A stretch of 64,000 nucleotides of DNA, from the NCBI GenBank assembly GCA_036785375.1, contig JAWMAR010001141.1:248001-312000 (forward strand), read 5' to 3'. Position 1 is the first letter of the stretch. Each line of letters starts with the position of its first letter. Origin of the DNA: Leucoraja ocellata. Lineage: Eukaryota. The notes below the pieces were generated by a model, which searched no databases, was not told the origin of the DNA, and was given only the letters and a program-made list of their open reading frames with translations. The position numbers and the translations under genes are program-made. Below, piece after piece: positions 1,288-60,000 of this stretch.

Positions 1288-1324
1288 CGGGCAGGGAATA
1301 CATGAGTAGCATTGGAATCCACAT
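1288..1324 (-). CDS. Leader exon (MWIPMLLMYSLP) of a third inhibitory-receptor copy continuing left of the window
   Basis: ATG + hydrophobic 12 codons + G|gtaagt; paralogous to 30723-30759 and 60700-60736. Confidence 0.8.
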
Positions 1325-1359
1325 AGTTTTATCCAAGGAGACCATGTTAGCACTGACCT

Positions 1360-21216: not shown

Positions 21217-21477
21217 CTAAGAAGTCACAGTGGCATAAATACTCTGCACAGGAGAAGGAGCTTTCTGACGGGCAATCTGGCTGACGCTTTGAGATGTAAC
21301 TTCTGAATAGGTGACATTGTCCTCCCCAGTACTGGAGTGAGACCCTGTCGATTTGCTTTGAACTTGCACTTCTGCACACACAGTTTGATATTGATTAGAA
21401 CAATGGGCAGCTTCCTTGTTGCTTCGAATGTCTGACAGTGTTGCATAAACGATGCTCCGTTTTCCTGCTGGCAAACC
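21217..21477 (-). CDS. Inhibitory receptor A terminal exon with ITIMs (IVYATL, VTYSEV, SIYATV)
   Basis: Strong acceptor ttttgtttttcag, phase 0; [ILVS]xYxx[LV] motifs. Confidence 0.9.
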   Translation of the reverse strand, partial: GLPAGKRSIVYATLSDIRSNKEAAHCSNQYQTVCAEVQVQSKSTGSHSSTGEDNVTYSEVTSQSVSQIARQKAPSPVQSIYATVTS

Positions 21478-24400: not shown

Positions 24401-27400
24401 CCATTTAGAGAATCAAGGGATATGGGGACAAGGTAGGAACGGGGGTACTGATTGTGGATGATCAACCATGATCACATTGAATGGCGGCGCTGGCTTGAAG
24501 GACTGATTGGACCTCTCCTGCACCAATTGTCTATCTATGTATCTATGTATGGATCAACAGTTTATTGTGTCTCTTGCTCTCACATTGAGAAGCAAGGCCA
24601 ATCAAAACTTGAGCAAGTGAAAATTATACCCGGGCGCAGGGGTGGCCGGTAGAATATTTCCGGATGTTACTTTTGTAGTTGAAGTAAACGCTACTGTTGT
24701 TGTTGTTGACGATCCAGGATTAGGTTCAGGTTCTGTTGAGAAAAGGAAATAAAAGACAATTCAAGATAGACAAAATATGCTGGAGTAACTCAGCGGGACA
24801 GGCAGCATCTCTGGAGAGAGGGAATGGGTGAAGTTTTGGGTCTGAGGATGGGTCTCGGGCCGAAACGTCACCCATTCCTTCCGTCCAGAGACGCTGCCTG
24901 TCCCGCTGAGATACTCCAACATTTCAAGTTCAAGTTCACATATTGTCACGTGCACCAATTAAGGTACAGTGGTATTTGAGTTATCATACAGCCATACAAG
25001 TTAAAACAGATAACGCAATACACAATAGTTTTAACATAAACATCCACCACAGTGGAATCATCATTCCTCACTGTGATGGAAGGCAACAAGGTTCAGTCAT
25101 CTTCCCCCTTTGTTCACCCGTGGTGGTCGGGGCCTTGAACCCTCAGCACTGCCACTGCCGACGGCCCGATGTTCAAGCCCTCTCGTCGGGATGATGAAGA
25201 CTCCGGAGTCGGAGCGGAACGGAAACTCTCCGCGGCTTCACGGTATTAAAGTCCACAAGCCCCGCGGTCGGAGAGCTTCCACAGCGATTCTCAGCAAAGG
25301 ATCACAGCTCCGCAATGTTAAAGTCCGCGTCGCCCTTGCGGCGAAGATCCAGCCCGGTCTCCAGGAAAGGCCGCATCCATCCAGTTGTTAGTCCGCGGGG
25401 AGGGGACGGAGACGTGACACGGGGAAAGATCACATCTCTGTTGCGGTAAGTGACTGAAAACGGTTTCGCCCCCTCCCCTCCCCCCCCCCCCCCCCCCTCA
25501 CCCCCCCCTCCTCCCCTCACTCCCCTCCCCTCCCCTCACCCCACCCACATGAAAAAAACACAGAGAAACATTAAAACATACATTTTAGACAGACTGAAAA
25601 TAACAAAAAAGTCGAAATAACACACAGGCTGCTGGCGAGGCTGCCATCTCGGCGCCATCCAGTGACGCATCTATCTGCTCTATAGATTGAGTGTCTATGT
25701 TCGATTAAAACAGCATCTGCAGTTCTTTCCTTCACAATAAAAGACATTTCCCTGTTTGCCGTTTCATCATTATTCAAGATCCAGGGGCATCATCTGCACA
25801 CTCCCAGGAGGGGTAAGAACAGAATTCGGCCAAACAGCAAAGATCCCGGCACTGATCCCTATGGTGCATCATTAAGGGCGGCACGGTGGCGCAGCTGTAG
25901 AATTGCTGCCTTACAGCGCCAGGGACCCGGGTTCGATCATGACCACGGGTACTTGTCTGTCTGTCTGGAGTTTGTACATTCTCCCCCTGACCTGCGTGAG
26001 TTTTCTCTGAAAACTTCGGTTTCCCCCCACACTCCAAACACGTACAGGTTTACAGGTTAATTGGCTTGGTATAAATGTAAAACGTACCGTCAGATACTTG
26101 GAGCTGAACGTTAAACATTGGATCCAAGCCAGATGTATCAATTCCACAGCTGTACCGTCCAGTATCGCTAGAGAGAAGACCCTCCACAGTCACAGTAAAT
26201 ATTCCTTGTGCCGGGTTATCTGTGATTGACCATCTTCCACGTCTGTGTTGCCCATTTGTTTTCACTACATCTGAACACGAGCGAGTCCACCCATGACACC
26301 AGTATTTTGTGTGTGAACGGTACCATGTTCCATAGTGACAATCGATTGTGATATATTTCCCCACAACTCCTCTTACAGGTGTCTTTGCCCACAGAGCACC
26401 TGAAACTGAGAAGAAAAATCATCAGAACATGTACAGGACAAATCTACTTAACACAGCGTTTGCTGTCCCACCCACTCTTCCCCTAATCAACGATGGGCCG
26501 AATGGTCCAACCCGTGTGTGGACATTCACTTACCCTTGAGCCAAGCACAAAGTGCCCGTGTAACTCAGCAGATCTGGCAGCATCTGTGGAGGGAATGGAC
26601 ACGTGACGTGTCGGGTTGGGACCCTGCTTCAGACTGATTAAAGTAGGGCGGGGAAAGCTGGAAGAGAGGTGGAGATGGGATAAAGCCTGGCAAGTGACAG
26701 GTGGAAGGTAGACACAAATTGCTGGAGTAACTCAGCGGGACAGGCAGCACAACAAGTGGATACAGATGAGGGGGGAATTTTGACTGGTTCACGAGTGGAC
26801 AAAGACTGGAGGTGAAAAGCGGTCAAAAGGTTGTCAGATGAGGAGAGATGAGAAGCGAAATGTAAAGACAGAGGGAGGGGTATATTTGGTAGGGGACAGG
26901 GTAGAAAGGGAAGAAGAGGCATGGGTTAAATGGTGCACAGGAAAGTGAGAGAGGGTAGGGGGGTGTGCAATGTAAAATTGGAGAATTTAATGATCATAAG
27001 ATATTTTTCTATTGATTGAATTGATTGAAAAATACAGCATGGAAAGATGCCCTTTGGCCCATCGAGTCCTCTTCACACTAAAGATAGACACAAGGTGCTG
27101 GAGTAACTCAGCGGGTCAGGCAGCATGTCTGGAGAAATAGAATGCGTGATGTTTCGGGATTGGGACCCTTCTTCAGACACCCTTCTAAGTTACTCCAGCA
27201 CTTTGTTTCTATCTTTGATACAAACCAGCACCTGCAGTTCTTTGGTCCTAACTGTTTACACTAGTTGGGCAGCACAGTAGCACAGCAGAAGAGTGGCTGC
27301 CTTACAGCGCCAAGGACCCGGGTTTGATCCTGACTATGGATGCTGCCTGTACAGAATTTGTACGTTCTCCCTGTGACCGCATGGGTTTCCTCTGGGTGCT

Positions 27401-30400: not shown

Positions 30401-30759
30401 TCAGGGCGCATCTGTGGGGAGAGATAGAGTTAGGTTTTAGGTCGAAGGATCTCTGATCTGAAAGGGTAACTCTTTTTCTCGGCACACCTGCTAAGTATTT
30501 CCAGCATATGTAAAGGAAGGAACTGCAGATGCTGGTTTACACCGAAGATAGACACAAAATGCTGGAGTAACTCAGAGGGACAGGCAGCATCACTGGATAG
30601 AAGGTATGGGTGACATTTCGGGTCGAGACTTTTCTTCCGCCTGAGTTACTCCAGCAAGTTGTGACTATCTCGTACTTCCCGTAGTCTGGTCACATGACCA
30701 TCCAAATCAAGCTGTTACTTACCGGGCAGGGAATAAATGAGCATCATTGGAATCCACAT
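21217..30759 (-). CDS. Inhibitory CD300/CMRF35/pIgR-like (MDIR-like) receptor, copy A; 6 coding exons, 283 aa
   Basis: join(30723-30759,26088-26405,24630-24732,22985-23070,22078-22124,21217-21477); all GT-AG, phases 1,1,2,1,0 compatible, open frame; leader, V domain, S/T stalk, TM, ITIM tail. Confidence 0.88.
21520..21856 (+). mobile_element. Old CR1 3' fragment (copy at ~51046-51382; similar fragments at ~5258-5445, ~14660-14895, ~37190-37690, ~54608-55075)
   Basis: QRRFTRMLP..YRERL..RGDLIEVYK-type peptide. Confidence 0.8.
22078..22124 (-). CDS. Inhibitory receptor A short cytoplasmic exon (KSEGNKPPRANNNEMQ)
   Basis: ttttccag acceptor, CAG|gtaaag donor; converts phase 1 to 0 as required. 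Confidence 0.75.
22985..23070 (-). CDS. Inhibitory receptor A TM exon (PIIYLSIAGVLLVVIFAGLLWCLMCRQR)
   Basis: Uncharged hydrophobic helix + basic stop-transfer residues; A|gtgagt donor. Confidence 0.88.
23195..23312 (-). mobile_element. Degenerate DeuSINE (AmnSINE1/SacSINE1-like) core fragment; copy at ~52698-52815
   Basis: Minus strand ctgctgtttgtggaacttgctgtgggcagattggc..tttaccacattacagca resembles the Deu-domain as recalled; not aligned computationally. Confidence 0.55.
23562..24409 (-). mobile_element. Rearranged CR1 fragment (internal inversion, no tail) in place of ~1.9 kb present in copy B
   Basis: Near-identical to 8385-9085; a + strand piece at ~23583-23706. Confidence 0.9.
24630..24732 (-). 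CDS. Inhibitory receptor A mucin-like stalk exon
   Basis: EPEPNPGSSTTTTVAFTSTTKVTSGNILPATPAP; phase 1 in, 2 out. Confidence 0.8.
24765..24925. repeat. Penelope-derived fold-back (inverted repeat); copy at ~55310-55472
   Basis: gctggagtaactcagcgggacaggcagcatctctgga ... tccagagacgctgcctgtcccgctgagatactcca. Confidence 0.8.
24925..25660 (-). mobile_element. Probable non-autonomous LINE-derived element (GATGGCGCC head, (CTTGAA)n tail); copy at ~55472-57118, interrupted by Penelope
   Basis: Tandem tail at ~24923-24936, CpG-rich body; family not identified. Confidence 0.4.
25876..26080 (+). mobile_element. tRNA-derived V-SINE (HE1-like) abutting the V-exon donor; copy at ~57335-57538
   Basis: ggcacggtggcgcag (A box), ggttcgatc (B box), central ctccggtttcctcccaca-like domain. 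Confidence 0.85.
26088..26405 (-). CDS. Inhibitory receptor A V-set Ig exon
   Basis: ITIDCHY..KYWCHGWTRSC..DTGRYSCG; 318 nt, phase 1-1. Confidence 0.95.
27267..27562 (+). mobile_element. Full-length tRNA-derived V-SINE (HE1-like)
   Basis: A/B boxes, central domain, CR1-like 3' end gggcctgtt..ctgtatctctaaa. Confidence 0.82.
27858..28570. mobile_element. CR1 3' fragments in alternating orientation (second subfamily, CTATTGT tail); truncated copy at ~58095-58545
   Basis: EGVQRRFTRLIPGM..SRTRGHSL peptide; inverted internal segment. Confidence 0.85.
30723..30759 (-). CDS. Inhibitory receptor A leader exon (MWIPMMLIYSLP)
   Basis: ATG, hydrophobic core, G|gtaagt; joins VSGALWAK. Confidence 0.85.
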
Positions 30760-33618
30760 AGTTTTATCCAAGGAGACCATGTTAGCACCGACCTGCTGCT
30801 CAGCTCTTAGTCCTCAGACTGAACGGTCTGACAAATATGGCATGTATTAAGAATGAGGAAGAAGGGAACAGGAAACCTGATTGTGAAACCAGAATGAGAC
30901 TGATGATAAAATCTGAAACTTTAGAATTTTTGAAGTTGTCTCAGTTTAGTTTAGTAAACAGGCCCTTCAGCCCACCGAGTCCATGCTGATCAGTGATCCT
31001 CGCACATTAACACTATCCTACACACACCAGGGACAATTGTTTACCTTTACCAAGCCAATTTACCTACATACATGTACCTGTACGTCTTTGGAGTGTAAAA
31101 TAAAAGTAATCCAATTTTCATTGACTGATGAAAGTAGTCCAGCCTTATACTTTTATTTTTTTTACTTTAAGAGATCATGTGGAAACAGGCCCGCACACTA
31201 GCAGCATTCTACACTTTAGAAACAGTTTACAATTTTTCTTACCAAAGTCAATCAACCTACACACCTGTACGTCTTTGGGATGTGGGAGGAAACCGGAGCA
31301 CCCGGAGGAAACCCATGCAGTCGCAGGAAGAATGTACAAACTCTACACAGACAGCACCCATAGTCGGGATTGAATCTAGGTCTCTGGCGCTGTGAGGCAG
31401 CAGCTCTACCACTGCTCCACTGTCCCACCCCTAACAGCCAAGACAAGCCAAATTTATTGTGATGTGCACAAGAACAGCGAAGCACAGGGACAATGAAAAT
31501 CTTACTTACAGCAGCATCACAGGCACATGTCAAAATAAAAGCTAAATTCAAAATATATTCACTCTTGGTGTTGTTAATGCCGCAGCAATTACTTGCATGA
31601 TTACTGCCGGTACAGCTGTATAGAATGCCAGTAAGCCAGACTACATATAGCTTGGATAGGCACAAAATGCTGGAGTAACTCAGCAGGACAGGCAGCTACT
31701 CTGGAGTTGCCCACCAGTCTCAAAAGCCGCTGTGTCTCCCTGTCCCTGGGATTAGCAGGGGGTGACCAAACAGCACAATATTTCCCTCCCCCTCCATGCC
31801 AACACGAAGGGCAACGATCCCAAGGCTTTAGCGTCAGGAACAGCGGGCAGGTGACAAAGAGTGGTGAATCTCTGGAATTCTGTGCCACAGAAGGTTGTTG
31901 AGGCCAGTTCATTGGCTATATTTAAGAGGGAGTTGGATGTGGCCCTTGTGGCTAAAGGTATCATGGGGTATGGAGAGATGGTGGGCACAGGATACTGAGT
32001 TGGATGATCAGCCATGATCATATTGAATGGCGGTGCAGGCTCGAAGGGCCGAATGGCCTACTCCTGCACCTATTTTCTATGTTTCTTTAAAAAAAAAATT
32101 TTAAACAATTTTTTATTTTTTAAATTTTTTTAAATTATTATTAAAAAAAGATAGAAATAAAAGAAGTAAGGAAAGTGAGCAAGAATCGTGAAGGTGCACA
32201 AAAGTGTTGGGAAAAGAAAGCCCCTTAGGGAAGAAGTTAGAGAAAGAAGTAAAGAAAGGAAATAAGACCCTAAAAAGAAATGAAAGAAAAAGAAAAACAA
32301 TCGCTCTATTGTAACACAAAACTCGCAATAAAGGATATACCAACCGTGTTTTAAAAAAAAATGTATTTTATACCCCCCGTTACCAGATCCTGGTATTATT
32401 TATATTTTAAATTACTATTGCACCTTATGCTATGTTTCTATGTTTCTATGAAGGAACTGCAGATGCTCGTTAAAACCGAAGATTGACTCAAAAACCTAGA
32501 GTTATTCATTGGGTGAGGCAGCATCTTTGGAGTAAAGAAATAGGTGATGTTTTGAGTCGAGACCTTTCTTCAGACAAAGTTAGGGGACAGGGAAACAAGG
32601 GTAACAAGGGAAACAAGTCTCTTACCTAGAGCAGGGGAATCAAGACTCAGGGGACAAGGCTTCAGGTGAAAGCGAAAATATTTCATAGGATCCTGAGGGG
32701 CATCATTTTTTTACACAGTGAGTTGTGGGTGTATGGAATGAGCTAACTGATGAGGTATTTGAGACAGGTGCTACAAAAACATTTTAAAGGCATTTGGACA
32801 GTTACATGAATTGGACTAGTTTAGTAGGAGATGGACCAAACGCTGGCAGGAGGAACTAGAGTAGATGGGGCATCTTAGTTGACGTGATATGACAATCAAG
32901 CACACTAAACGCTTGCGTTTAACAATACAATACAAAACAATACAAAATCGACCAAATGTCGTCGACATGGATTCAGTTCCAGTGCGTAAAAAAAATTATG
33001 AGAAGAATATACCTTGTACTATATTTGTTTTGAGTACTGTTGATATCAATCTTGTAATTGGAGATAGTGTGGTTGTCATTGGTTCTGTTATAAAAATATA
33101 TGTTATTGTTAATGTTTAATGTTTTAGGTGTCACTCCTAATGTCACTGTGTCACATTGCACTTGTGGGCAGAGCACCAAGGCAAATTCCTTGTATGTGAA
33201 TACTTGGTCAATAAACCTATTCATTCATAAACCTATTCATTCATCATTCATTCATCATTCCTTCATAAGTTTATTCAAGTTCTGTTGAGGCAAGGAAATA
33301 AAATTAAGTCTCACCTGTTTTCACATGCAGTGACTAAAGAGAACAAGATTGTCAGATGGAACCCATTGCTTTGAGTAAAGGGCCAATTAGTTTGAGAGAT
33401 ACGGTGACTTTCCTTCAGTGGAATTGGACGTCTTAGTTGAGTTGAGTTTAGTTTAGAGATACAGCATGGAAACAGGACCTTTGGCCCACCTAGTTGACGC
33501 CAACCAGCTATCTCCTCCGCACACCAGCACTATCCTGCATACACTAGGGTCAATTTACAATTTTACCAAAGCCAATGAACCTACAAACCTGCACGTCTTT
33601 GGAGTGTGGGAAGAAACC

Positions 33619-34138
33619 AAACATAGAAACATAGAAATTAGGTGCAGGAGTAGGCAATTCGGCCCTTCGAGCCTGCACCGCCATTCAATATGATCATGAC
33701 TGATCATCCAACTCAGTATCCCGTACCTGCCTTCTCTCCATACCCCCTGATCCCCTTAGCCACAAGGGCCACATCTAACTCCCTCTTAAATATAGCCAAT
33801 GAACTGGCCTCAACTACCCTCTGTGGCAGAGAGTTCCAGAGATTCACCACTCTCTGTGTGAAAAAAGTTCTTCTCATCTCGGTTTTAAAGGATTTTCCCC
33901 TTATCCTTAAGCTGTGACCCCTTGTCCTGGACTTCCCTAACATCGGGAACAATCTTCCTGCATCTAGCCTGTCCAACCCCTTAAGAATTTTGTAAGTTTC
34001 TATAAGATCCCCTCTCAATCTCCTAAATTCTAGAGAGTATAAACCAAGTCTATCCAGTCTTTCTTCATAAGACAGTCCTGACATCCCAGGAATCAGTCTG
34101 GTGAACCGTCTCTGCACTATGGCAATAATGTCCTTCCT
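33619..34138 (-). mobile_element. CR1 3' fragment inserted in a SINE; present in unit B, absent in C
   Basis: ORF 33713-34117 is the ORF2 C-terminus; same tail; empty site near 63928. Confidence 0.9.
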
Positions 34139-34922
34139 AAAATCTTAAAGATCTTAGAGAAAACCCACTTGGTCATGGGGAGAACATACAAACTCCGTAC
34201 AGACAGCACCCGTATCGAACCCGCGTCCCTGGCGCTGAAATGAAGGCAGCAACACCACCGCTGTACACCAGTGCCGCCCTATGTATCATTTATATTTTTG
34301 TGTGTCTACGTGTATGTGATGTTGCCACAGGCGTGATTTTCATTGTATCTGCACCTCACCACACGTGCACATAAGAATGACAGACTTGACTTGAAAGCAG
34401 CTCAGCAAAGTATATTATAGTGATGTTCTCATGAGAAAAAGTACTTCCAGAACATTTGATCTGATGGGATGTCATAGCTTATAGTTTCCCTCTTCTAAAT
34501 ATTCTTCACAGTTAAAACCATGAGGCATTTCCAGGATTGAATACAATTTATTCCACATAACTGCAATGTCATGCTACACAACCCAAAATAATAAGTCATT
34601 GCTATAAAGGCTAGCAACATTGTTTAAATGGCACCTTTACTGAGTGAATATTGTGTAAACTAAGTTAATAATTTTAGCAGAAGAAGCATTAATTCTGTGC
34701 AGTCTATTATGAAAGCAAAATGTAAAACACTTTGTCAATGCCCTTTATGGGCGACTATTTGCATACCTTGGGTTAGCAAGCAAAGAATTTCACTGTGACT
34801 TGTCACACGTGACAATAAAGTATTAATTAATTAATTCATTCATTCAAAATAATAATGATCATTTGGTCTTGTTGGAGAGTTGTTTCTCAGTCACTATCAC
34901 CAGTAGATCTTCATTCTGCCTT

Positions 34923-34958
34923 CTACGGCAAGCTGTGAGGTTTCGGTTCATTGGGTCC
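34923..34958 (-). CDS. Activating receptor B terminal exon (GPNEPKPHSLP*)
   Basis: Paralogous to 3971-4006. Confidence 0.6.
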   Translation of the reverse strand, partial: GPNEPKPHSLP

Positions 34959-37900
34959 CTGCAAAAAAAAAACTTAGAAGTCATCAGATTAATTGACTCC
35001 GGGAATTGTGCTGTATTTCACAAGGCCACTAACAACAGAATTCTGCTTCCAATTGGCACAGTGATGCAGCTGATAGAGCTGCTGCCTCACAGCGTCCAAG
35101 AATTTGCTTGGATTTTGACTTTGATGCTATCTGTGTGGCGTTTACATGTTCTCGCTGTGGCCATGTGGGTTTCCTCCGCGAGCTCCGGTTTCCTCCCACC
35201 TCCCAAAGACTTGTGGGTTTACAGGTTAATTGGCCAATGTGAATTTCCCCTAGTGTGTTGGGAGTTGGGATGAGAGAATGGGATAACATCGAACTAATGC
35301 GTACGGGTGATCAATGGCCTGATCGGCACAAAGTGCTGGAGTAACCCAGCGAGTCTGGCACGATCTCTGGAGAAAAAGGATGGGTGACATTTCAGGTCGG
35401 GACCCTTCTTCAAACTGAAAGTAGAGGAGAGGGAACTGGGTTCAGATAAGGTGGTCACAGTGGGCCAAAGGGCCTGTTTCCCAGTTGTATTTCTCTGATT
35501 CAATGACACTACAACATCTACGTCAAACACTTCAGTTCATTCTGCACACAAATATCTTGTCAAGACCAATTGATATCATCTTCGTAGAGCATTGGTTTGG
35601 CCTATATTTGTGAAGTACTTTATCTAAACGCTTTTTGTTTGTTTTATTTTACCAGCATGTTTGAAGGTATTAATGGACAGCATTTGGAAGCATTCAGCGA
35701 TTCTGATGATCTCCGCAAAACATACCTTCCTTATACTTGTGAACAATGAGACTGAGATGCTGCAGATCCCAAGCAGAGCGAAGTACAGCCAGCGTCCCAC
35801 ATTCCATATCATGTAACTGAGCAAAGGGGGAAAGATACAGAATCAGTGGGAGGAAACAGACTTGTTCGTGTTGGAAACATTCATAGCCTGATTGCTGTGA
35901 AATCTCTGCATGGAGCAGGGCACAGCAACAGAGCCCAGGTAGTTCACCTGGGAAATTCCACCGTCCAGGATCTCGACCCGAAACTTCACCTATCCATGTT
36001 CTTCAGAGATGCTGCCTGACTCGCTGAGTTACTCCAGCATTTTGTGTCTAGCGTTGATAAAGTTAGATAAAAAAAGATGGGAGAAGTGACGAGTGGTATG
36101 TAAACACCTGTGTGGGACCAGTTCAGTTGATCTTTTCTGTGCCTTAAATCCTATGTGATCAGATGTCATTCTGCGTAACCCTGGAACCTCATCACATTGA
36201 GGGTATTGTGTGCATTTCTGGTCACCATGTTACAGGAAAGATTTTGTCAAGCTGGAAAGGGTGCAGAGAAGATTAACGAGGATGTTGCCGGGACTCGAGG
36301 GACTGATGTATAGGGAAAGGTTGAGCAAGCTCGGTGATTATTTCTTGGAGAGCAGGAGAACGAGGGGTGATCTTATGGAGGTGTATCATCAAGAGATGAA
36401 TCAACAATTACTCTCTCATTGTTTTTTTGTTACATTGACACATTTGATAGAGCTGCTCTCTTAAGGCGCTAAACACCTGGGTTCGATCCTGAACTCAGGA
36501 TGTTATCTGCGTGGATTTCTACATTCTCCCTATGACCGCGTGGTTCTCGTGCAGGTGCTCTGGTTTGCTCCCACATCCTAAAGGCATGCGGGTTTGGAGG
36601 TTAATTGGCATCTGTAAAATCGCCCTTAATGTGTAGGAAGTGAACAATAAGGTGGTACAACACAGAACTAATGTTAACGGGGGGATGGAAGATCGACACA
36701 AAAAGCTGGAGTAACTCAGCGGGTCAGACAGCACCTCTGGAGAGAAGGAATAGATGACGTTTTTCATGTTGAGTCACTTCTTCAGACTGATCTATGGATG
36801 TCATGGACTCATAGGGTGGAAGGGCCTGTTTCCGTGCTAGAGTCCATTTGGCCCATTGAGTGTATGCTGGATCTTAGATCATTCTCGTACTCCGATCTCA
36901 ACATTTGAATCGATTGAAGTCAATACTCTGATGCACTTAACTAGCAAATGAAAGAGGAAATTCTCTTCCAATTAAATATCATAGGGAAGCAGAGCCAATC
37001 ACAACAGCAGTAATAACATAATTGTACCATTCAGTGCAGGTGGATCGGGTGGAGTCATTTTGACTCTCATTGGATCTTTTTACTGTACTTGCAAAAGGTG
37101 TAGTCATCATTCGTTCAGCCACTTTATGTTCTGTTGGGTCAAGGAAATACAATTCAGCATCACCTGCTTTTCACTTGCAATCTTAAGTTCATAAGGCATA
37201 GGAGCAGAATTAGGTCATTCGGCCCATCAAGTCTACTCCATCATTCAATCATGGCTGATCTATCTCTCACTCCTAACCCTATTCTCCTGCCTTCTCCCCA
37301 TAACCCCTGATACCCGTACTATCTCCGCCTTAAAATATCCATTGACTTGGCCTCCACAATATTCTGTGGCAATAAATTCCACAGATTTACTACCGTCTTG
37401 CTTAAGAATTCCTTCCTAAAGAAACACTCTTTAATTCTGAGGCTATGACCTCTGGCCCTAGATTATCTCACTAGTGGAAACATCTTCCCCACATCCACTC
37501 TATCCAGGCCTTTCATTATTCAGTAAGTTTCAAAAAGGGCCTCCCTCACCCTTCCAAACTCCAGCGAGTACAGGCCCAGTGCTGTCAAACACTCATCATA
37601 TATTAACCCACTCATTCCTGGGATCGTTCTTGTAAACCTCCTCTGGACCCTCTCCAGAACAAGCACATTCTTCCTCAGATATGGGACTGACCAAACAGTC
37701 TGCTCCACCATTCAATCACGGCAGATCTATCCATCCCTCTCTACCCCATATGCAGGGGGAGGATGTGCTGGCCGTAGCAGTGCGCATGTGCGAGGCGGCC
37801 GGCCGTGCCGGCGGACGAGGAGCCCGGCGGCCCAGACACGGATGGCGGGCGGAGACGGAGAGTAACAGAGAGAGAGAGATAATGAGGGGACTCACTCAGA

Positions 37901-40900
37901 GTTAAACGGCAGGTGTCCCGGGTGCTTGCCATGCCGGGCAAAATGACACAACTTTTAGGTTGCCCGGCAGGACGTTAGATGGCCATTGGCACCTGGGCAA
38001 CCGTAAATTTCGAGCCCTGCTTTGGCCGAGGCCCCTAGATTTCGGGGCCCTGGGCAGGGTAACGTTTCGTACTTACCATTGTTACCGAAATGCACTATAT
38101 AACTGCAATTCTCTCCGGTGTTGGACACTGCCACAGTAACCATTTCACTGGACTCTGTCCCGTTATTATTTGAGGCTTTGCAGTAATATTGATGGCTTTG
38201 TTGTTTGAAGTATTGACAACGTAGACCCAGGTTGTTGTTATTTGAGATCTTTAAGGTATTTTCATACCAGGTGTAGCTAATGGGAAGAGATCCCCGCTCA
38301 GACCTACAGGACACTGTCACTGAGCCTCTGACACCGGGGACATTGGCTGGTGATAGTAATCCAAGCACAGGAACAGACACAGGTTCTGTGGGAAAGGAGC
38401 AAATAATGGATACAAAGTCAACACTTGAATATAAACGACTCTCCCATTCTGGCACCCTTGTACCTCGACTTGTGAAGAGGTACACGCGAACCTCGTCTCC
38501 TGCCTTCGGTGCTCGCAATATGACCTCGACCTTGACATCGGCCAGCCCAAACGGAGGCTTGGAGACCGGTTCGCTGAACACTTGCCGCCCCGTTCCCCTC
38601 CACGCGGTCAATTCCATCCCTCCATCCCTCCCTCAATCCTGCTTCACATTTCACTGTTCCTCCTCTCCTTATCTGGTCTCCTCCTCACTTATATCTCTCC
38701 ACCCGTCTGTTGATCAACCCTCTCATCTGTATATATCTATCTATCTATCCCTCGCCAGGCTTGGTGCCGTTCCCATCTCTCAATTCCAGTTTTCTCCTCC
38801 CTCATTCCGTCTGTCTGAAGGGGGGTCACGACTCGAGTGTTCAAGAAGGAACTGCAGATGCTGGAAGATCGAAGGTACACAAAAATGCTGGAGAAACTCA
38901 GCGGGTGCAGCAGCATCTATGGAGCGAAGGAAATAGGCGACGTTTCGGGCCGAAACCCTTCTTCAGACTCGAGTTGGTTTTGTCCATTGCCTCCACAGAT
39001 GCTACCTGACCCACTAAGTTCTTCCAGCACTTATGATTTTGTTTACGTGTCGTACACCTGTCCAATGTTCGGTGGCTATACAGAGAGGCTATAGTTGTGC
39101 TTGGATTAAGTGACCTGCAACAGGAAGGGCACCCACTGGTGCTGATATCGGGGTGGAGACAGCGAGAGATATTGTCAGTCTGAGAATCCCAGAAACTCGG
39201 GGAAGCTGGAGGTCGCCGGGAGTTTCCTGAAAGGTCTGATTAGGATTGCTTTACTCAAATTTCCACCGAGATTGGGCCGGGTGGAGAGGCTGGCTGGCTG
39301 CCGGGCGGTGGGTGGTCAGTGGTGAGTGGCTGCTGGGGGTGGGGGCGCATTGACGGGACAGAGGGAGATAGAGGGAGAGAGACCGCTGGGTGGGGAGAGG
39401 GTGTATGGTCCCTGAGGTGGGGGCGGGGTGCGGGCTGGCCTGCCCCGGGAGTATTGAATGCAGTCTGTTGAACTCACGGGACTGATTCCCTGTTTATGAT
39501 TCTCCAGGTATTCAGACCAGACCACTTGTTTCTATCTGATCTGTCGGATTATTAGTTTTAGTGGGAATGCAAACCTCTGACAGGGTGACATTTCATACAG
39601 TTCAGAGGCAGGGAAATGTGCTGAGCGGGACAGAGCCGGCACTGGGTGAGAGCAACATGAGTGGGGTTTCCCGACCCCCGCCCGCTCCCCGCGGGTCTCT
39701 GCACTGCTGCGGAGCCTCGGGATATCGGTGCTGCCCTGACCCTTCCCGGAGAAAACATGGATCAGGCATTTCAGTGGAGACGTCAAGTTAATCGCTGCGA
39801 AACGTACCGTCAGATACTTGGAGATAAATGTTAAACAATGGATCGTAGCCAGATGTAGTAATTCCACAGTTGTACCATCCAGTATCTCCAGAGCGAAGAT
39901 CCTCCACAGTCACGGTAAATATTCCTCGTGCCGGGTTATCGGTGATTGACGCTCTTCCATTCCGTCCGTGTTGCCCATTTGTTTCCAATAAAACTCTACA
40001 CTGGCGGGTCCACCCTTGACACCAGTATTTTGTGTGTGAGCGGTACTTTGCTTCATAGTGACAATCGATTGTGATCGCTCTTCCCACAACTCCTCTTACA
40101 TGTTCCTTCCCCCACACCGCACCTGAAACTGAGAGGACAAATCTTCTGAAAATGAACAGGAACAATCAGCTGAATATTCGGAATGATGAGGGGTGTGTTG
40201 GACAACATTCACCCCCGCACCAACACTGGACCAGATCATCCATCACTGAATGGACTTGCCCTCGTTTCAATTGGAAACGTCTCTGCCATTTCCAACCTAG
40301 TGGTAGGAAACAACATCTCATATTTCCCGTCGGCAAATTACACCTCAATGGTATGAATATTGATATCAAGTAAACCTTACATCCCCCCCTCTGCCCATCC
40401 CTCCCCCACCCAAGTTGCACCAGCTTCTTGTTGAATCTCATTGTCTGTAACTAGTTCTCACTCACCGCACAGCAATGGCCTGTTTCCTTTACCATTGTTA
40501 CTTGTTTACATATATTTCATTCATTTGTTCTATATCTCTCTACACAACCGTCTATACCTCTTCCATTTCCCCTGACTCTGTAGAAGAGTCTAGATCTCGA
40601 AACAGCACCTATCCCTTAGTTCCATAGATGCTGTCTGACCAGCTGAGTTACTCTAGTATATTGTGTCTATCTTCCAAACCAACATTGTCTCTGCCCCCTC
40701 AGCATTGCCGGCGTTTCTATCGCTCGTCACGCTGCTGGGAGCGGCATCTCCCGGCCTTAGTGTCGGCTGGTGACTTCCCAGAAGATCCAGCAGTTGTGAA
40801 TGGAAGGAGACCACAGAGTACAATATTCGGCAAATTACCTCACTATAGCTACCAACTAAATGGCTCGCTTTAATGACCGAGTGAGAAAATACGTCCAAGT

Positions 40901-43235: not shown

Positions 43236-43270
<35 letters not shown>

Positions 43271-50742: not shown

Positions 50743-51003
50743 CTAAGAAGTCACAGTGGCATAAATACTCTGCACAGGAGAAGGAGCTTTCTGACGGGCA
50801 AGCTGGCTGACGCTTTGAGATGTAACTTCTGAATAGGTGACATTGTCCTCCCCAGTACTGGAGTGAGACCCTGTCGATTTGCTTTGAACTTGCACTTCTG
50901 CATACACAGTTTGATATTGATTAGAACAATGGGCAGCTTCCTTGTTGCTTCGAATGTCTGACAGTGTTGCATAAACGATGCTCCGTTTTCCTGCTGGCAA
51001 ACC
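50743..51003 (-). CDS. Inhibitory receptor B terminal exon with ITIMs and an ITSM
   Basis: IVYATL, TVYAEV, VTYSEV, SIYATV. Confidence 0.9.
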   Translation of the reverse strand, partial: GLPAGKRSIVYATLSDIRSNKEAAHCSNQYQTVYAEVQVQSKSTGSHSSTGEDNVTYSEVTSQSVSQLARQKAPSPVQSIYATVTS

Positions 51004-54000
51004 CTGAAAAACAAAAGAGGAACCAAGGTTTGTCTGATGATTTGTGTTCAGTTTTAGTCACCATGTCATAGGAAAGATGCTGTCAAGTTGCAAAGGGTGC
51101 GGAGAAGATTTGCAAGGGTGTTGCCCAGACTCGTGGGCGTGAACTATAGGGAGAGGTTGAGCAGGCCAGGATGCTTGGAGTGCAGGAGGATGAGGGGTGA
51201 TCTGATAGAGGTGTACAAAATCATGAGAGGAAAAGATCGGGTAGATGCACAGAGCCTTTTGCCTAGAGTAGAAGAATCGAGAACCAGATGATATAGGTTT
51301 ATGATGAGGGGGGGAAAGATTTAATAGGAACCCAAGGGGTAACTTTCTACACAAAGTGTGGTGGGTGTATGGAACGAGCTGCTGTGTATGTGATCATGGC
51401 TGATCATCCAAAATTAGAACCCTGTTCCTTTGAAATAATCGTCTGATCTGTATGCATAAAATAACCATGATGCATCTTGATGCGTTTGATGATAAAGGAA
51501 CCATAGAACCATTGAAGCAGATTAGTGACTTGATTAGTGAGGTTGGATTACAGAATTTTGTAAGTTCTCAATACACGGGGAATTCATACTTTGCCGTCTT
51601 TACCTGCATTTCATTGTTATTTGCTCCGGGAGGTTTGTTCCCTTCTGATTCTGGAAAACACAATGTTAACATTGAAAGAACATGTCAGGGACATTTTTAA
51701 CCAGCCATCTTGATGCATATAGAGTAGGGAGGAACTGCAGATGCTGGTTTAAACCGAAGATGGACACAAAATGCTGGAGTAACTTAGTGGGACAGGCAGC
51801 ATCTCCGGAGAGAAGAAATGGATGGCGTTTCAGGTTGAGACCCTTCTTCAGACCGTTCTCTCCAGAGATGCCTATCCTGCTGATTTACTCCAGCATCTTC
51901 AATCTGTCAGGTGTATAACCAGCATCTGCAGTTCCTTCCTACACTTTTATTCATGAGAACCACAGGGATACCACAAGCCCAACTAGGTGGGTTACCTCTG
52001 GGTGCTCCGGTTTCCCCCTACATCCTAAAGACATGCACGCCTGTAGGTTAATTCCCACTGTAAATTGCCCCTAGTGTGTAGGCGAGGGGTAGAATCTTGG
52101 GGGAATTGATAACAACATGGAGAGAACAAAGTTGGATAAAATTAGTGTGTAGAAAGGACCTGCAGATTAATGAATTAATGAATAAGTTTATTTGCCAAGT
52201 ATTCACATACAAGGAATTTGCCTTGGTGCTCCGCCCCCGCAAGTGACAACGACAAACAGTGACAGTTAGGAATGACTAGTAACTCAATGAATCAGGCAGC
52301 ATCTCTGGACAAAAAGGTTGTGTGACATTTCAGGTCGAGACCCTTCTTCAGACTGGATAAGATTATTGTGGGACTGGAATAAAGAGATGTTTGATAAAGG
52401 GCCTGTTTCCGTGCTGTATCTCTCTCCCTCTCTGCAGGAAATGATCACATACATCATGAAAGGATGAAGGAAACATAGAAACTCACTCCTTTGTCTACAC
52501 ATTAGGCACCAAAGTAGACCAGCAAATATCACCACGAGAAGAACTCCAGCAATACTGAGGTAAATTATGGGTCTATGGGACAGAGAAAGCAAAAAGGTTA
52601 CTCTTGTTTCATCATTGATTCCTATCCTTTGGTAAAGAACAAAAGTCTAACATCTGCAGGGTATCTTTCATGAGCTCAGGATAAGTCAAGCCCAGTCAAT
52701 GGAGTGCACACATTGCTGTAATGTGGTAAACACCAAAGCCAATCTGCCCACAGCAAGTTCCACAAACAGCAGTGCGATAACGACCAATGATTGTGATGTT
52801 GGATAAAGAATAAACCCAACTCAACCCAACAGTAGCGCAGCATGGACTTGATGCCTTACAGCGCTAGAGACCCAGGTTCAATCCAGACTACAGGTGCTGT
52901 CTGTAAGGAGTTTGCATATTCTCCCTGTGATGAAGTGGGTTTTCTCCGGGTGCTCCGGTTTCCTCCCACATCACAAAGACGTGCGGGTTTGTGGGTTAAT
53001 TGGCCTTGGTAAATTGTCCTTAATTTGTAGCGAGTGGATGAAAAAGCGGGATCACATAGATCTAATATAAAAGGGTGATCGACGGACAGCGTGGACTCGG
53101 AGGAAGGAAGGATTTGTTACCATGCTGTATCTCTAAACTAAAGTAAAACTAAACTAATTGTGTGTGAGATCTGGCCAGTGGCATTGTCCGTGGTCGATAT
53201 ATCTGCCGATTGGTTTACAAATGCTCACAGCTTACAGATTTACAAAGGAAACACCCCTTGTTCAAAACCAGTGGACAGTCAATAAGTGTAGGAAGGAACT
53301 GCAGATGCTGGTTTAAACCGAAGAAGATAGAAACAAAATGCTGGAGTAACTCAACGGGAGAGGCAGCATCTCTGGAGAGAAGGAATGGGTGACAGTTGGG
53401 ATTGAGACCCTCCTTCAGGGGAGAAGGAGATACAGAGATAAGGAAGTATAAGGTGTGAAAATGAACTAATGGGGGTGGAGATCAAGGAAAATGTAGAATA
53501 GATCATTGTTAGCTGGGAGACGGTAACAACAAAGTAAACAAAGATAAAATATAATTGGGCAGAGTCAGACTGGTCGGAGTACTGGAAAGGGAATGGGATG
53601 GAGTCAGGGAAAGCAAGGGTTACTTGTAGTTGGAGAAGTCAATATTCATACAGCTGGGGTGGAAGCTGCCCAATATGAGGTGCTGTTACCCATAATTTTC
53701 GCTGATAAAGGAGGAGGCCCAGGACAGAAATGTAAGCGTGGGAATGGGAGTGGGAGTTAAAGTGTTCACCACCGGACGGTCAGGTAGGTTTAAGCGGACT
53801 GAGCGAAGGAGATCAGTGAAACGATCGCCAAGCCTGTGCGTATTCTTGCCGATATATAGGAGTCCACACCTGCAACTGTAGATGAGGTTGGAGGAGCTGC
53901 ATGTGAACCTCTACCTCACCTGAAAAGACTGTCAGGGTCCTTGGACGGATTCGATGGGGGAGGTATAGGGACAGGTGTTGCATCTCCTGCAGTTGCAGGT

Positions 54001-57000
54001 GAAAGTACTTGGGGACGGGGTAGTTTGGGTGGGAAGGGATGAGTTAACCAGGGAGATGCGGAGGGAACGGTCTCTGCAGAAAGCAGAAAGGGGTGGAAAT
54101 GGGGAGATGTGGCTAATGGTGGGTGTCAATGTCCTGCCAATTTTAACTGTTGTTTCTTTAATTTAGTTTAGTTTATTATAGTCACGTGCATCGAGGTTCA
54201 GTGAAAAACATTTGGTTGTGTGTTATCCAGTCAGCGAAAAGACTAGACACGATTACAATCAAGCTGTCACAGCATATAGATTTGTGATAAAGGGTAGAAT
54301 GTTTAGTGCAAGATAGAGTCCAATAAAGTCTGATTAAAGATAGTTGGAAGGTCCCCAATGAGGTAGATGGGAGGTCAGGGTCGCTCTCTAGCTGGTGAGG
54401 GGATGGTTCAGTTGCCTGGTAACTGCTGGGAAGAAAATGTCCCTGATGGGAGAGGGGAGAAGAGGGAGTGACCGGGGCGAGTGGTCCTTGATTATGACTC
54501 TCTGGCATTGTAAGGCAGCAACTCTACCACTGTACCACCATGCCACCCTCGACAACCTAGAGTTACTACAGTACTTTGTGTTCTACTCAAGGATCCAGCA
54601 TCCAGCCAGGTTAATTCCCGGGATGGCGGAACTGTCATATGATGAAAGAATGGAGCGTCTGGGCTTGTATTCACTGGAATTTAGAAGGATGAGAGGGTAT
54701 CTTATAGACACATATTAAATTATTAAGGGATTGGACACGCGAGATGCAGGAAACATGTTCCCGATGTTGTGGGAGTCCAGAGCCAGGGGCCACAGTTTAA
54801 GAATAAGGGGTAGGCTATTTAGAACTGAGTTGAGGAAAACTTTTCACCCAGGGAGTTGTGAATCTGGGGAATTCTTTACCTCGTAAGGCAATGCAGGCCG
54901 ATTCACTGGATACATTCAAAAGATAATTAGACATAGTTCTTAGGGCTAGCGGAATCAAGGGATATGGGGACAAGGCAGGAACGGGGTACTGATTGTGGAT
55001 GGTCAACCATGATCACATTGAATGGCGGTGCTGGCTCGAAGGGCAGAATGGACTTCTCCTGCACTATTGTCTATCCATCTATGTATCTATGTATGGATCA
55101 ACAGTTCCTTGTGTCTCCACCTCTCATATTGAAAAGCAAGGCCAATCAAAACTTAAGCAAGTGAAAATTATACCTCTTAGAGAAACTGGTCGCATGATCA
55201 TTGTTTTCGGATGTTACTTTTGTAGTTGAAGTAAATGCTACTGTTGTTGTTGTTGACGATCCAGGATTCGGTTCAGGTTCTGTTGAGAAAAGGAAATAAA
55301 AGACAATTAAAGATAGACAAAATATGCTGGAGTAACTCAGCGGGACAGGCAGCATCTCTGGAGAGAAGGAATGGGTGAAGTTTCGGGTCTGAGGATGGGT
55401 CTCGGGCCGAAACGTCACCCATTCCTTCCCTCCAGAGACACTGCCTGTCCCGCTGAATTACTCCAACATTTCAAGTTCAAGTTCACATATTGTCACGTGC
55501 ACCAATTAAGGTACAGTGATATTTGAGTTATCATACAGCCATACAAGTTTAAAAACATAACGCAATACACAATAGTTTTAACATAAACATCCACCACAGT
55601 GGAATCATCATTCCTCACTGTGATGGAAGGCAACAAGGTTCAGTCATCTTCCTCCTTTGTTTACCCGTGGTGGTCGGGGCCTTGAACCCTCAGCACTGCC
55701 ACTGCCGACGGCCCGATGTTCAAGCCCTCTCGTCGGGATGATGGAGACTCCGGAGTCGGGGCGGAACGGAAACTCTCCGCGGCTTCACGGTATTTAGTCC
55801 ACAAGCCCCGCGGTTGTAGAGCTTCCACAGCGATTCTCAGCAAAGGATCACAGCTCCGCAATGTTAAAGTCCGCGTCGCCCTTGCGGCGAAGATCCAGCC
55901 CGGTCTCCAGGAAAGGCCGCATCCATCCAGTTGTTAGTCCGCGGGGAGGGGACGGAGACGTGACACGGGGAAAGATCACATCTCTGTTCAAGAAGGAACT
56001 GCAGATGCTGGAAAATCGAAGGTACACAAAATTGCTGGAGAAACTCAGCGGGTGCAGCAGCATCTATGGAGCGAAGGAAATAGGCGACGTTTCGGGCCGA
56101 AACCCTTCTTCAGACTGATGGGGGGTGGGGGGAGAGAAGGAAGGAAAAGGGGAGGAGGAGGAGCCCGAGGGCGGGCGGATAGGAGGGTGGGAGGAGACAG
56201 CTAGAGGGTTAAGGAAGGGGAGGAGACAGCAAGGGCTAGCAAAATTGGGAGAATTCAATGTTAATGTTATCCGGACGCAAGGTCCCCAGGCGGAATATGA
56301 GGTGCTGTTCCTCCAATTTCCGCTGTTGCTCACTCTGGCAATGGAGGAGACCCAGGACAGAGAGGTCGGATTGGGAATGGGAGGGGAGTTGAAGTGCTGA
56401 GCCACCGGGAGGTCAGGTTGGTTATTGCTGACTGAGCGGAGGTGTTCGGCGAAATGATCGCCCAACCTACGCTTAGTCTCCCCGATGTAAATCAGCTGAC
56501 ACCTAGAGCAGCGGATGCAGTAGATGAGGTTGGAGAAGATGCAGGTGAACCTTTGTCGCACCTGGAACGATTGCTTGGGTCCTTGAATGGAGTCGAGGGG
56601 GGAGGTGAAGGGACAGGTGTTGCATTTCTTGCGGTTGCAACGGAAAGTACCCGGGGATGGGGTGGTGCGGGAGGGAAGGGAAGAATTGACAAGGGAGTTG
56701 CGGAGGGAGCGGTCTTTGCGGAAGGCAGACATGGGGGGAGATGGGAAGATGTGTCGAGTGGTGGGGGCACGTTGGAGGTGGCGGAAATGGCGGAGGATTA
56801 TGTGTTGTATTTGCCGGCTGATGGGGTGAAAGGTGAGGACCAGAGGGACTCTGCCCTTGTTGCGAGTGCGGGGATGGGGAGAGAGAGCAGTGTTACGGGG
56901 TATGGATGAGACCCTGTTGTGATCACATCTCTGTTGCGGTAAGTGACTGAAAACGGTTTCGCCCTCCCCTCACCCCCTCACCCCCTCCCCCTCCCCTCAC

Positions 57001-60000
57001 CCCCCCACAATAAAAAACACAGAGAGACATTAAAACATACATTTTAGACAGACTGAATATAACAAAAATGTCGAAATAACACACAGGCTGCTGGCGAGGC
57101 TGCCATCTCGGCGCCACCCAGTGACGCATCTATCTGCTCTATAGATTGTGTGTCTATGTTCGATTGAACCAGCATCTGCAGTTCTTTCCTTCACAATAAA
57201 AGACATTTCCCTGTTTGCCGTTTCATCATTATTCAAGATCCAGGGGCATCATCTGCACACTCCCAGGAGGGGTAAGAACAGAATTCGGCCAAACAGCAAA
57301 GATCCCGGCACTGATCCCTATGGTGCATCATTAAGGGCGGCACGGTGGCGCAGCTGTAGAATTGCTGCCTTACAGCGCCAGGGACCCGGGTTCGATCATG
57401 ACCACGGGTACTTGTCTGTCTGTCTGTCTGGAGTTTGTACATTCTCCCCGTGACCTGCGTGAGTTTTCTCTGAAAACTTCGGTTTCCCCCCACACTCCAA
57501 AGACGTACAGGTTTACAGGTTAATTGGTATAAATGTAAAACGTACCGTCAGATACTTGGAGCTGAACGTTAAACATTGGATCGAAGCCAGATGTAGTAAT
57601 TCCACATCTGTACCATCCTGTATCGTTAGAGTGAAGATCCTCCACAGTCACAGTAAATATTCCTTGTGTCTGGTTATCTGTGATTGACCATCTTCCACGT
57701 CTGTGTTGCCCATTTGTTTCCACTACATCTGAACACGAGTGAGTCCACCCATGACACCAGTATTTTGTGAATGAACGGTACCATGCTCCATAGTGACAAT
57801 CGATTGTGATATTTTCTCCCACAACTCCTCTTACAGGTGTCTTTGCCCACAGAGCACCTGAAACTGAGAAGAAAAATCATCAGAACATGTACAGGACAAA
57901 TCTACTTAACACAGCATTTGCTGTCCCACCCACTCTTCCCCTAATCAACGATGGGCCGAATGGTCCAACCCGTGTGTGGACATTCACTTACCCATGAGCC
58001 AAGCACAAAGTGCCCGTGTAACTCAGCAGATCTGGCAGCATCTGTGGAGGGAATGGACACGTGACGTGACGTGTCGGGTTGGGACCCTGCTTCGGCGATG
58101 AGGAAACACAGAGAGTTGTGAGTATGTGGAATTCTCTGCCCATTCTCTGGAAACTTTCAAGAGAGAGCTAGATAGGGCTCTTAAAGATAGTAGTCAGGCG
58201 ATATGGGGAGAAGGCAGGAACGGGTACTGATTGGGGATGATCAAGCATGATCACATTCAATAAACAATGGACAATAGACAATAGGTGCAGGAGTAGGGCA
58301 TTTTGCCCTTCGAGCCAACACCGCCATTCAATGTGATCATGGCTGATCATCTTCGTTCTAAATGGCTTACCCCTTATTCTTAAACTGTGGCTCCTGGTTC
58401 TGGACTCCCCCAACATCAGGAATGTGTTTCCTGCCTCTAGCGTGTCCAAGCCCTTAATAATCTTAAAATATTCTTACAATAATCTTACATGGCAGTGCTG
58501 GCTCAAAGGGCCGAATGGCCTACTCCTGTACCTATTGTCTATTGATGAGTACTGAGGCTTGTGAATCCCTACAACAACCTTATCCCCCAAATGCACGTAT
58601 ATCGTTGGCCTGTTTTATGGAGGGTAAACCTTATTTGCCATCATCCCCATCTATAAACTAGGAAATAGTCACCTACACTTCACGCTGCCTTGCAAGGCCA
58701 CCAGCATAATCATGGAGCAGTTTCATCCCAGTCACTCCTTCTTTACCTGTCTACCATTAGGCACGAGGGACAGAAGTTTGAACCCAATGCTCTAGATTCA
58801 GAGACAGTTTTCTTCCCAACCATCTTCAAGCAACTGACCCATCCTCTCACTAGCTAGAGCGCAGTCCTGACCTCCTATTTACCCCCTTGAACAATCAATA
58901 ATTGGACTTCATTGGACTAAACTAAACTAAACTAGTAAAGCAATGATACTAGATTACCGGAAATGATCTGGTGAATGAAGACAGTCAATGTTGGCCTTCA
59001 CCTGCATCTGAGCATTAAAAAAAAGAATTTACTTGGTAACAAGAAATTATTAATATTGCATGCTGATGACTTTGATGAATATGCATAGTTGACGTCCAAG
59101 AACAAGAAGGAAATGGCTACTTATTGCAAGAGCAACCCACAGCCCAAGAGGAACTGGACGTCAAACAATATCTGAACTTTAAATAACAGGAAGTGTTGTA
59201 AAATGGAGACAATTGTTTTGGCATTATTGCTTGGCTGCTGTTAGTGAGTGCAAGCAAGCAATAAAACAATGTTTTATGAATAGAAATGGTCCCTTTGCAC
59301 TTTGACACTGTTACTTTAGTTTAGTTTAGTTTAAGATGGAGCATGGAAACTGGCCCTTCGGCCCAATTTGTCCGTGCTGACCTAGTATCTTGTACACTAG
59401 GGACAATTTACATAGTCCATATTCCCTATTTATAGAGGCCAATTAACCTACAAACCCATGTGTCTTTAGGATGTGGGAGGAAACCAGAAGACTGGGGAAA
59501 AACCCATGCGGTCACAGGGAGAAGGTACTAACTCCGTACAGACGGACCCCTTAGTTAGGATTGAACCCAGATCTCTGGTACTGTAAGGCACCGCTGTGCC
59601 ACTGTCCCAGTCACTTGTAATTGTCTCTGTTTTACATTCACAGTTGCTTTGTGCTGTCAGATACATTGGCGGCCATGATTTATGTGTGGCACAGTGATGG
59701 AGACAGGAGAAGATTGGAAGACCACACTCTAATATTGAGACAAAAGAGATTGCAGATGCTGGAATCTGGAACAACAAACAGCACACTGGAAGGACTCAGT
59801 GGGTCATGGAGGTTTGAAGGCAAAAAAGTGTAAGTTGTTCTTTCAGATCGAGACCCTGCATCAGGACTGAGAGGGGACAGATATGTTTGGCAACATATAG
59901 ATGTACTAATGGGTGGGAGGGTTGGGGCTGGTTGAGGAAGATGGAACTGGATGAAGAGGATATGTTTCATAGAGAATACACAAGCAGAACATGAGATGTT

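Follow-up and report, generated by a model that had tools for sequence, protein, structure and literature searches.

Diversification of V domains and exchange of V exons in a cluster of putative paired MDIR genes of the skate Leucoraja ocellata

Introduction

A stretch of 64,000 nucleotides of the Leucoraja ocellata genome (NCBI GenBank assembly GCA_036785375.1; contig JAWMAR010001141.1, hereafter C1141, positions 248001-312000; referred to as the window) contains two closely similar genes, A and B, each predicted to encode a receptor with one V-set domain and a cytoplasmic tail carrying immunoreceptor tyrosine-based inhibitory motif (ITIM) patterns. Most of the substitutions between their V exons change amino acids. 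This raises the question of whether the V domain has been under diversifying selection, as the initial annotation of the window proposed, and, if so, whether pathogens that target inhibitory receptors are the cause. We assign both genes to the MDIRs, a multigene family with activating and inhibitory members similar to CD300, TREM, and pIgR (PMC3031540).

Results and Discussion

Nonsynonymous excess in A-type V exons

Between the V exons of A and B, 19 of 318 nt differ, affecting 17 codons; of these differences, 17 are nonsynonymous and two (at G15 and T81) synonymous. Fifteen residues are changed, and the four Cys residues and the KYWC sequence of the C strand are unchanged. On re-count, the exon coordinates and the counts given in the initial annotation proved exact, and its statement that the transmembrane (TM) exons (86 nt) show two differences, both synonymous, was confirmed. 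The TM exon was rejected as a neutral control, being too short and diverged at about the intron rate.

Taken by itself, the pair did not give a significant ratio of nonsynonymous to synonymous rates (omega). The Nei-Gojobori estimate was 2.55 (S = 71, N = 244), with p = 0.156 in the Fisher test and p = 0.164 in the binomial test, and the test under the intron mutation spectrum gave p = 0.12; the result is weak because about 77% of the sites are nonsynonymous. The introns of the two genes differ at 125 of 3953 sites (3.2%). Synonymous divergence of the V exon lies at this neutral level (2/71, 2.8%), and nonsynonymous divergence was raised to 17/244 (7.0%) versus 3.2% in the introns (p = 0.003).

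The comparison was extended to the paralogs in the genome. The best 150 of 206 candidates in a genome search for the V exon were listed as matches, and 860 kb of C70, a second contig of the same genome used for comparison, and 174 kb of C1141 were surveyed. Among 129 hits, 107 were delimited, and 102 were kept as intact after 22 undelimited exons, four with stops, and one without a Cys had been dropped. Eight of the V exons, named A-type here, form one clade with 100/100 support. Four are carried by ITIM-tailed genes, namely A, B, g6inh (C1141:244959), and h2inh (C70:4668059), and four by genes with Arg in the TM segment, namely g1act, g2act, g3act (C1141:342249, 329247, and 317379), and h1act (C70:4655732). 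None of the eight V exons contains a stop or frameshift.

With each change counted once over the eight exons, a count that is robust to recombination among them, the minimum was 48 nonsynonymous and 4 synonymous changes (binomial p = 0.0035). The nonsynonymous rate across the eight genes was 2.1 times the intron rate (p = 5e-6), and the intron spectrum including CpG predicts 22.2 nonsynonymous and 7.2 synonymous changes versus the 48 and 4 observed (P = 1.4e-6). Private bases over the A-type exons comprised 21 nonsynonymous and 1 synonymous. B alone has nine private nonsynonymous bases and no synonymous one, and A has no private amino acid change.

Site models of our own, of the GY94 type (not codeml) and with branch lengths scaled by a single factor, gave an omega of 2.76 under M0 for the eight exons, and twice the log-likelihood difference (2dL) between M1a and M2a was 24.9. 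Null simulations with heavy recombination, made by shuffling segment trees, reached neither value in any of 75 runs (maxima of 18.3 for 2dL and 2.36 for omega). Variable residues occupied 2 of the 27 positions presumed to form the core and 32 of the 78 others (p = 0.0009), and none of the 15 changes between A and B lies in the core. Taken together, these data make it very probable that the V domain of the A-type clade is under diversifying selection. The selection claimed in the initial annotation is thus borne out by the eight paralogs, the introns, and the site models, although the 17:2 count alone (p = 0.16) did not establish it.

The excess is not particular to inhibitory genes, since the activating-type A genes differ among themselves by nonsynonymous:synonymous counts of 25:3, 17:0, and 28:3; the view that the effect is typical of inhibitory receptors therefore failed. 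The A-type clade had the highest omega of six V clades, the other five ranging from 0.78 to 1.72, and the C2 clades had omega values of 0.62, 0.66, and 1.35. The nonsynonymous excess is family-wide in a milder form.

Exchange of V exons among A-type genes

Tests for exchange were made on whole-intron alignments, in which B carries an intron deletion. The genes g3act and g6inh lie 72 kb apart, and only 1 of 318 V bases differs between them; their V proteins are identical, and their introns are about 3.2% apart. The low-difference tract extends from -56 to +504 (p = 0.0005). On C70, h2inh follows g3act almost without difference over about 6 kb, as far as V base 204, beyond which its 3' half is of the inhibitory kind; h1act matches g1act exactly over about 5.7 kb starting at V base 250. 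The V domain of A shows 93% protein identity to that of g2act and 86% to that of B, and the informative sites of A track g2act and then g1act (runs test p = 4.6e-5, or 0.008 when corrected for 168 triplets). This was the only triplet of the 132 testable to pass the Bonferroni threshold.

These results show that V-exon conversion and crossovers inside the V exon have occurred among A-type genes, inhibitory as well as activating-type, and that the V exon of A is a mosaic of g2act and g1act. As in paired receptors, a nearly identical ectodomain is found on an inhibitory and an activating-type gene of one cluster (g6inh and g3act), and the likeness is maintained by conversion or crossover.

Most of the bases that distinguish A from B occur elsewhere in the family. 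The base of A is common to another A-type gene at 18 of the 19 sites and is the family majority at the remaining one; that of B is common to another A-type gene at 10 sites and family-common at five more. Only four of the 19 bases (in codons 16, 31 twice, and 64) are nearly private. The initial annotation had suggested that gene conversion contributes, on the basis of residues shared with activating-type V domains of two further genes in the window, C and D. A contribution of conversion was found, and the partners are activating-type A genes outside the window, not C or D. The shared residues exist: H31, R41, P64, and A65 in A and E48, D75, W83, and T89 in B. In 90 other V exons, each of these residues is the majority state, and E48, D75, and T89 are also present in A-like domains of other skates; the matches are therefore ancestral and do not indicate conversion. 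C and D were accordingly rejected as donors: of 30 bases diagnostic of C/D, A has one and B four, and neither gene appears among the 14 longest identical runs of either V exon.

Position of the changes in the V domain

The V domains of A and B belong to the Pfam V-set family (PF07686), and their solved relatives are pIgR domains and CD300. CD300lf gave the top Foldseek matches of a predicted V-domain model of moderate quality (predicted local distance difference test score, pLDDT, 67.5). Residues 72-101 of A align without gaps to residues 76-105 of mouse CD300lf, and the GLDPMF sequence of complementarity-determining region 3 (CDR3) is present in both; one gap is needed to align the CC' loop. 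C36 and C43, which are invariant in all 102 intact V exons, correspond to C36 and C44 of CD300lf, the Cys pair of its second, CC' disulfide. In CD300lf, Asp98 binds Ca2+, and Tyr34, Gln41, Arg42, Trp89, and Met100 line the cleft for phosphocholine and norovirus (PMC6166816). D94, which corresponds to Asp98 by alignment only, is invariant in eight of eight A-type and five of five C-type V domains, and the G.DP pattern occurs in just 2 of 89 other V domains.

The changes between A and B at positions 41, 85, 89, and 93 align to Arg42, Trp89, Thr93, and Leu97 of CD300lf, so that 4 of the 15 changes fall in the CD300-like cleft or its loop. The rest are spread over the BC, C'C'', DE, and EF regions, the F strand, and the A'B turn, and one binding face therefore cannot explain them.

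The three N-glycan sequons of B (N17, N63, and N79) contrast with none in A, and no other exon among the 107 delimited has more than one. In place of N17, individual A-type genes have Tyr, Asp, or Thr, and a change of Pro64 to Gln or Ser creates the sequon at N63 in B, g1act, and h1act. Random changes yielded three sequons in 10 of 20,000 draws, in a test made post hoc. The idea that B gained three glycan sites was kept merely as a lead, because N17 is ancestral in A-like domains of Amblyraja and three sequons also occur in 10 of 216 V-domain hits of other species.

Proposed explanation and its alternatives

We favor the explanation that the V exons of A and B are diversifying under pressure from pathogens and are swapped with those of activating siblings, as in paired receptors, and assign it, in full, a probability of roughly 0.6. 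By analogy with CD300, Siglec, and CEACAM pairs, the ITIM-bearing forms would dampen leukocytes through phosphatases when they bind a self ligand, which might be a phospholipid held in a Ca2+ pocket like that of CD300. Pathogens that bind the inhibitory receptors would select for surface changes. The activating siblings would be kept in step, and the variants reshuffled, by conversion and unequal crossover within the head-to-tail array.

Several points weigh against this explanation. Exchange tracts of 300-480 bp are also found in introns, so the exchange is not V-specific; the 182-nt identical run between A and g2act is not significant at the intron rate (p = 0.40), and a test similar to the pairwise homoplasy index (PHI) was not significant within the V exon (p = 0.27). 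Recombination alone pushed the likelihood ratio test (LRT) past 5.99 in 34 of 75 null runs, and the nominal p-value of this test is therefore inflated. Variable sites are not concentrated on a single face (EF loop 5/9, DE 4/5, BC 4/9, FG 4/8, and CC' 1/5), and most of the A/B changes accordingly lie outside the CD300-like pocket. The pocket-floor Trp89 of CD300lf is Ser in A and Arg in B, which sets both apart from CD300 proper. A C2 clade (PVSAPVLRY, 18 copies on C70) has an omega of 1.35 and a strong positive class (LRT 38.4), so that diversification extends beyond V domains. The core positions are our own assignment, based on the V-set pattern and on a structure model whose quality is moderate (pLDDT 67.5), all A-type sequences come from one genome, and the class of the putatively activating genes (C, D, g1act, g2act, g3act, and h1act) is read from an Arg-bearing TM segment and a short tail.

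The best-surviving alternative, which is clearly less likely but deserves consideration, is that selection is real and acts on a repertoire of self or environmental ligands (lipid head groups, immunoglobulin, or glycans) or on glycosylation, not on escape from pathogens, with exon exchange as a by-product of the tandem array. The spread of the changes across the surface, the exchange of introns, the presence of site classes above 1 in several V clades and one C2 clade, and the toggling of sequons at 17, 63, and 79 are all in line with it. On the other side, a tract of the size of the V exon links an activating-type gene to an inhibitory gene, as in the Xenopus ceacam pairs (PMC5112662), and the omega of the A-type clade is the highest of the six V clades.

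Relaxed constraint on young duplicates together with chance, under which the true omega would be about 1 and the 17:2 count a lucky draw, is improbable. The pair alone gave p = 0.16 and was picked post hoc, and the exon-internal test is anchored by only four synonymous changes. Relaxation, however, cannot yield a nonsynonymous rate above that of introns, and the 2.1-fold rate over eight genes (p = 5e-6) largely refutes it; moreover, the core is spared, the eight V exons are free of stops and frameshifts, and the observed omega or LRT was reached in 0 of 25 neutral simulations.

It is more improbable still that the differences were imported by conversion from C or D or from a more distant paralog. 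B does agree with C/D, and not with the other seven A-type genes, in E48, T89, and one base of codon 93, but most of 90 other V exons carry those states (90, 78, 86, and 50 of 90). The 100/100 support for the A-type clade and the few C/D-diagnostic bases (A 1 and B 4 of 30) argue against import, and a paralog 16% away should also have brought in synonymous changes. Import is refuted for long tracts, and tracts shorter than about 15 nt could have been transferred. Base-call or assembly error is highly improbable: at most 4 of the 19 bases are exposed to it, the others being common to A-type genes or the family, and the exons are without indels.

Comparison with known receptor systems

The closest proteins to A and B are from skates and rays, with 80-82% identity to Amblyraja radiata models. 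The V domains show 66% identity to those of clearnose-skate MDIR3 and MDIR5, and the cluster resembles the MDIRs of that species in its mixture of V and C2 exons and in having both Arg-bearing forms and tails with Tyr motifs. A and B differ from them in having a single V domain and a stalk without C2. A and B are each predicted to be an intact ITIM-tailed gene of a skate MDIR (CD300/pIgR-like) cluster. The cluster as a whole shows the modular V and C2 domains of this multigene family, A and B themselves being V-only, and contains activating and inhibitory forms as judged by motif alone. A polymeric immunoglobulin receptor would have several tandem V domains per chain, and only one V exon lies between leader and stalk in these genes; the 'pIgR-like' label on homologs of A and B is merely automatic. 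In a literature search mostly outside subscription journals, we came across no study of selection or conversion in MDIRs or elasmobranch CD300 genes, nor of copy-number variation between MDIR haplotypes.

In mammals, ectodomain conversion between the inhibitory CD300A and activating CD300C genes, with variable glycosylation, has been described (PMC12447643). The skate genes resemble such pairs (CD300A/CD300C and mouse CD300lf/CD300ld) in the single IgV domain, the extra CC' disulfide, and the four Tyr motifs of the inhibitory tail, and A shares the GLDPMF CDR3 with the norovirus receptor CD300lf. They differ in lacking the pocket Trp89 and in the size of the cluster (about 130 V exons), and the activating TM segment of CD300C has Glu, whereas that of the skate genes has Arg near the N-terminal end. 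That the A-type genes might be a cartilaginous-fish counterpart of mouse CD300lf/CD300ld, serving as an entry receptor for a skate pathogen, is a doubtful extension of this comparison. The Ca2+/phospholipid-binding GLDPMF loop, absent from most of the cluster, would then have been retained, and the response would consist of changes at the pocket rim, switchable N-glycan sites, and V-exon crossovers that make new pairs on each haplotype. If this were true, the arms race of CD300 paired receptors would date to the base of jawed vertebrates.

In the Xenopus ceacam pairs, conversion between inhibitory and activating genes is restricted to the ligand-binding exon, which is under diversifying selection (PMC5112662). 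These belong to another immunoglobulin (Ig) family, and the partners face each other, whereas the skate genes are arranged head-to-tail. The ceacam introns are poorly conserved and the changes lie on the CC'C''FG face, in contrast to the skate genes with introns 97% alike and changes spread over the domain. A SIGLEC14/5 fusion allele joins the 5' part of the activating gene to the 3' part of the inhibitory gene on a shorter haplotype (PMC4042635). h2inh on C70 is similar to this SIGLEC5/SIGLEC14 fusion; Siglecs, however, are sialic-acid lectins, and the skate exchange may have run in either direction.

Diversifying selection combined with ectodomain conversion is standard in paired immune receptors of mammals and frogs and would not surprise a specialist. 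The value of the present case lies in the taxon, a cartilaginous fish with a little-studied family, and in the clear record, with crossover points readable on two apparent haplotypes. The A-type clade and its named residues are singled out for ligand work, with a testable link to the CD300lf lipid pocket.

Gene structure, neighboring genes, and the two contigs

Genes A and B consist of a leader, V, stalk, uncharged TM, and two cytoplasmic exons, without C2; the open frames encode 290 and 291 amino acids (Table 1). The V exons, on the minus strand and 318 nt each, have AG/GT phase-1 borders. By pattern definitions taken from a figure legend in PMC5112662, the tail of B has four Tyr motifs (IVYATL, TVYAEV, VTYSEV, and SIYATV). 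In A, the second Tyr is Cys; because TVCAEV replaces the TVYAEV of the other three inhibitory genes, A has one Tyr motif fewer, that of the immunoreceptor tyrosine-based switch motif (ITSM) pattern.

Table 1. Features of genes A and B and of neighboring genes in the window
Gene	Feature	Position in the window	Strand
A	Leader exon, coding part	30723..30780	-
A	V-set exon, 105 codons; mosaic of two activating-type paralogs; 0 N-glycan sequons	26088..26405	-
A	Thr/Ser-rich stalk exon; 3' end unlike that of B, in frame	24630..24732	-
A	TM exon, uncharged	22985..23070	-
A	Cytoplasmic exon 1	22078..22124	-
A	Last exon; ITIM-pattern IVYATL, VTYSEV, SIYATV; TxYxxV motif with Cys for Tyr	21217..21477	-
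B	Leader exon, coding part	60700..60757	-
B	V-set exon; ancestral states including E48 and T89 retained; sequons N17, N63, N79	57546..57863	-
B	Stalk exon	55174..55279	-
B	TM exon, uncharged	52487..52572	-
B	Cytoplasmic exon 1	51604..51650	-
B	Last exon; ITIM-pattern IVYATL, VTYSEV, SIYATV and TVYAEV (ITSM pattern)	50743..51003	-
C	V exon, C-type sister clade; about 84% nt identity to A and B; not conversion donor	7873..8193	-
C	TM exon with Arg; putatively activating type	4783..4873	-
D	V exon, C-type	39808..40128	-
D	C2-type Ig exon	38080..38385	-
D	TM exon with Arg; exon type of the four activating-type A genes outside the window	35726..35816	-
g6inh	Leader of third inhibitory A-type gene (V exon at C1141:244642-244959)	1288..1345	-

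The 3' end of the stalk exon is replaced (GNILPA..AP) in both A and g6inh (C1141:243255), with the frame intact, and the intron that follows aligns poorly to the other six A-type genes. The 500 bp upstream of the leader of A (30790-31290) also align poorly to the equivalent region of the other seven A-type genes, which suggests an insertion or a replaced promoter.

The leaders of C and D are unlike those of A and B, and their TM segments bear Arg. D has a C2 exon; the distance from V to stalk is about 1 kb shorter in C, and no C2 exon is visible in 6225-7873, which consists partly of N. In the surveyed stretches, 53 of 78 C2 exon hits were intact. The region C70:3870000-4690000 is a very large MDIR cluster with about 120 V and about 75 C2 exon hits, including several frameshifted or truncated V exons, such as three consecutive ones near 3.942 Mb.

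C1141 is collinear with C70 in reverse, with anchors 98% identical, and the two contigs are most likely two haplotypes of the locus. Between the same anchors, there are nine genes in C1141:226464-346372 versus three in C70:4651340-4689709, and the C70 block has the appearance of C1141 altered by unequal crossovers, of which one is intergenic and two lie within V exons. Of 66 candidates in a search for the inhibitory last exon in other species, 2 matched, both of them Rhinoraja models, and this number was too small to test concerted evolution across species. In g3act, the short last exon (C1141:312800-312700) diverges from that of g1act past GPNE, and g2act, C, and c3 are without a GPNE match; the tails may therefore vary among the activating-type genes.

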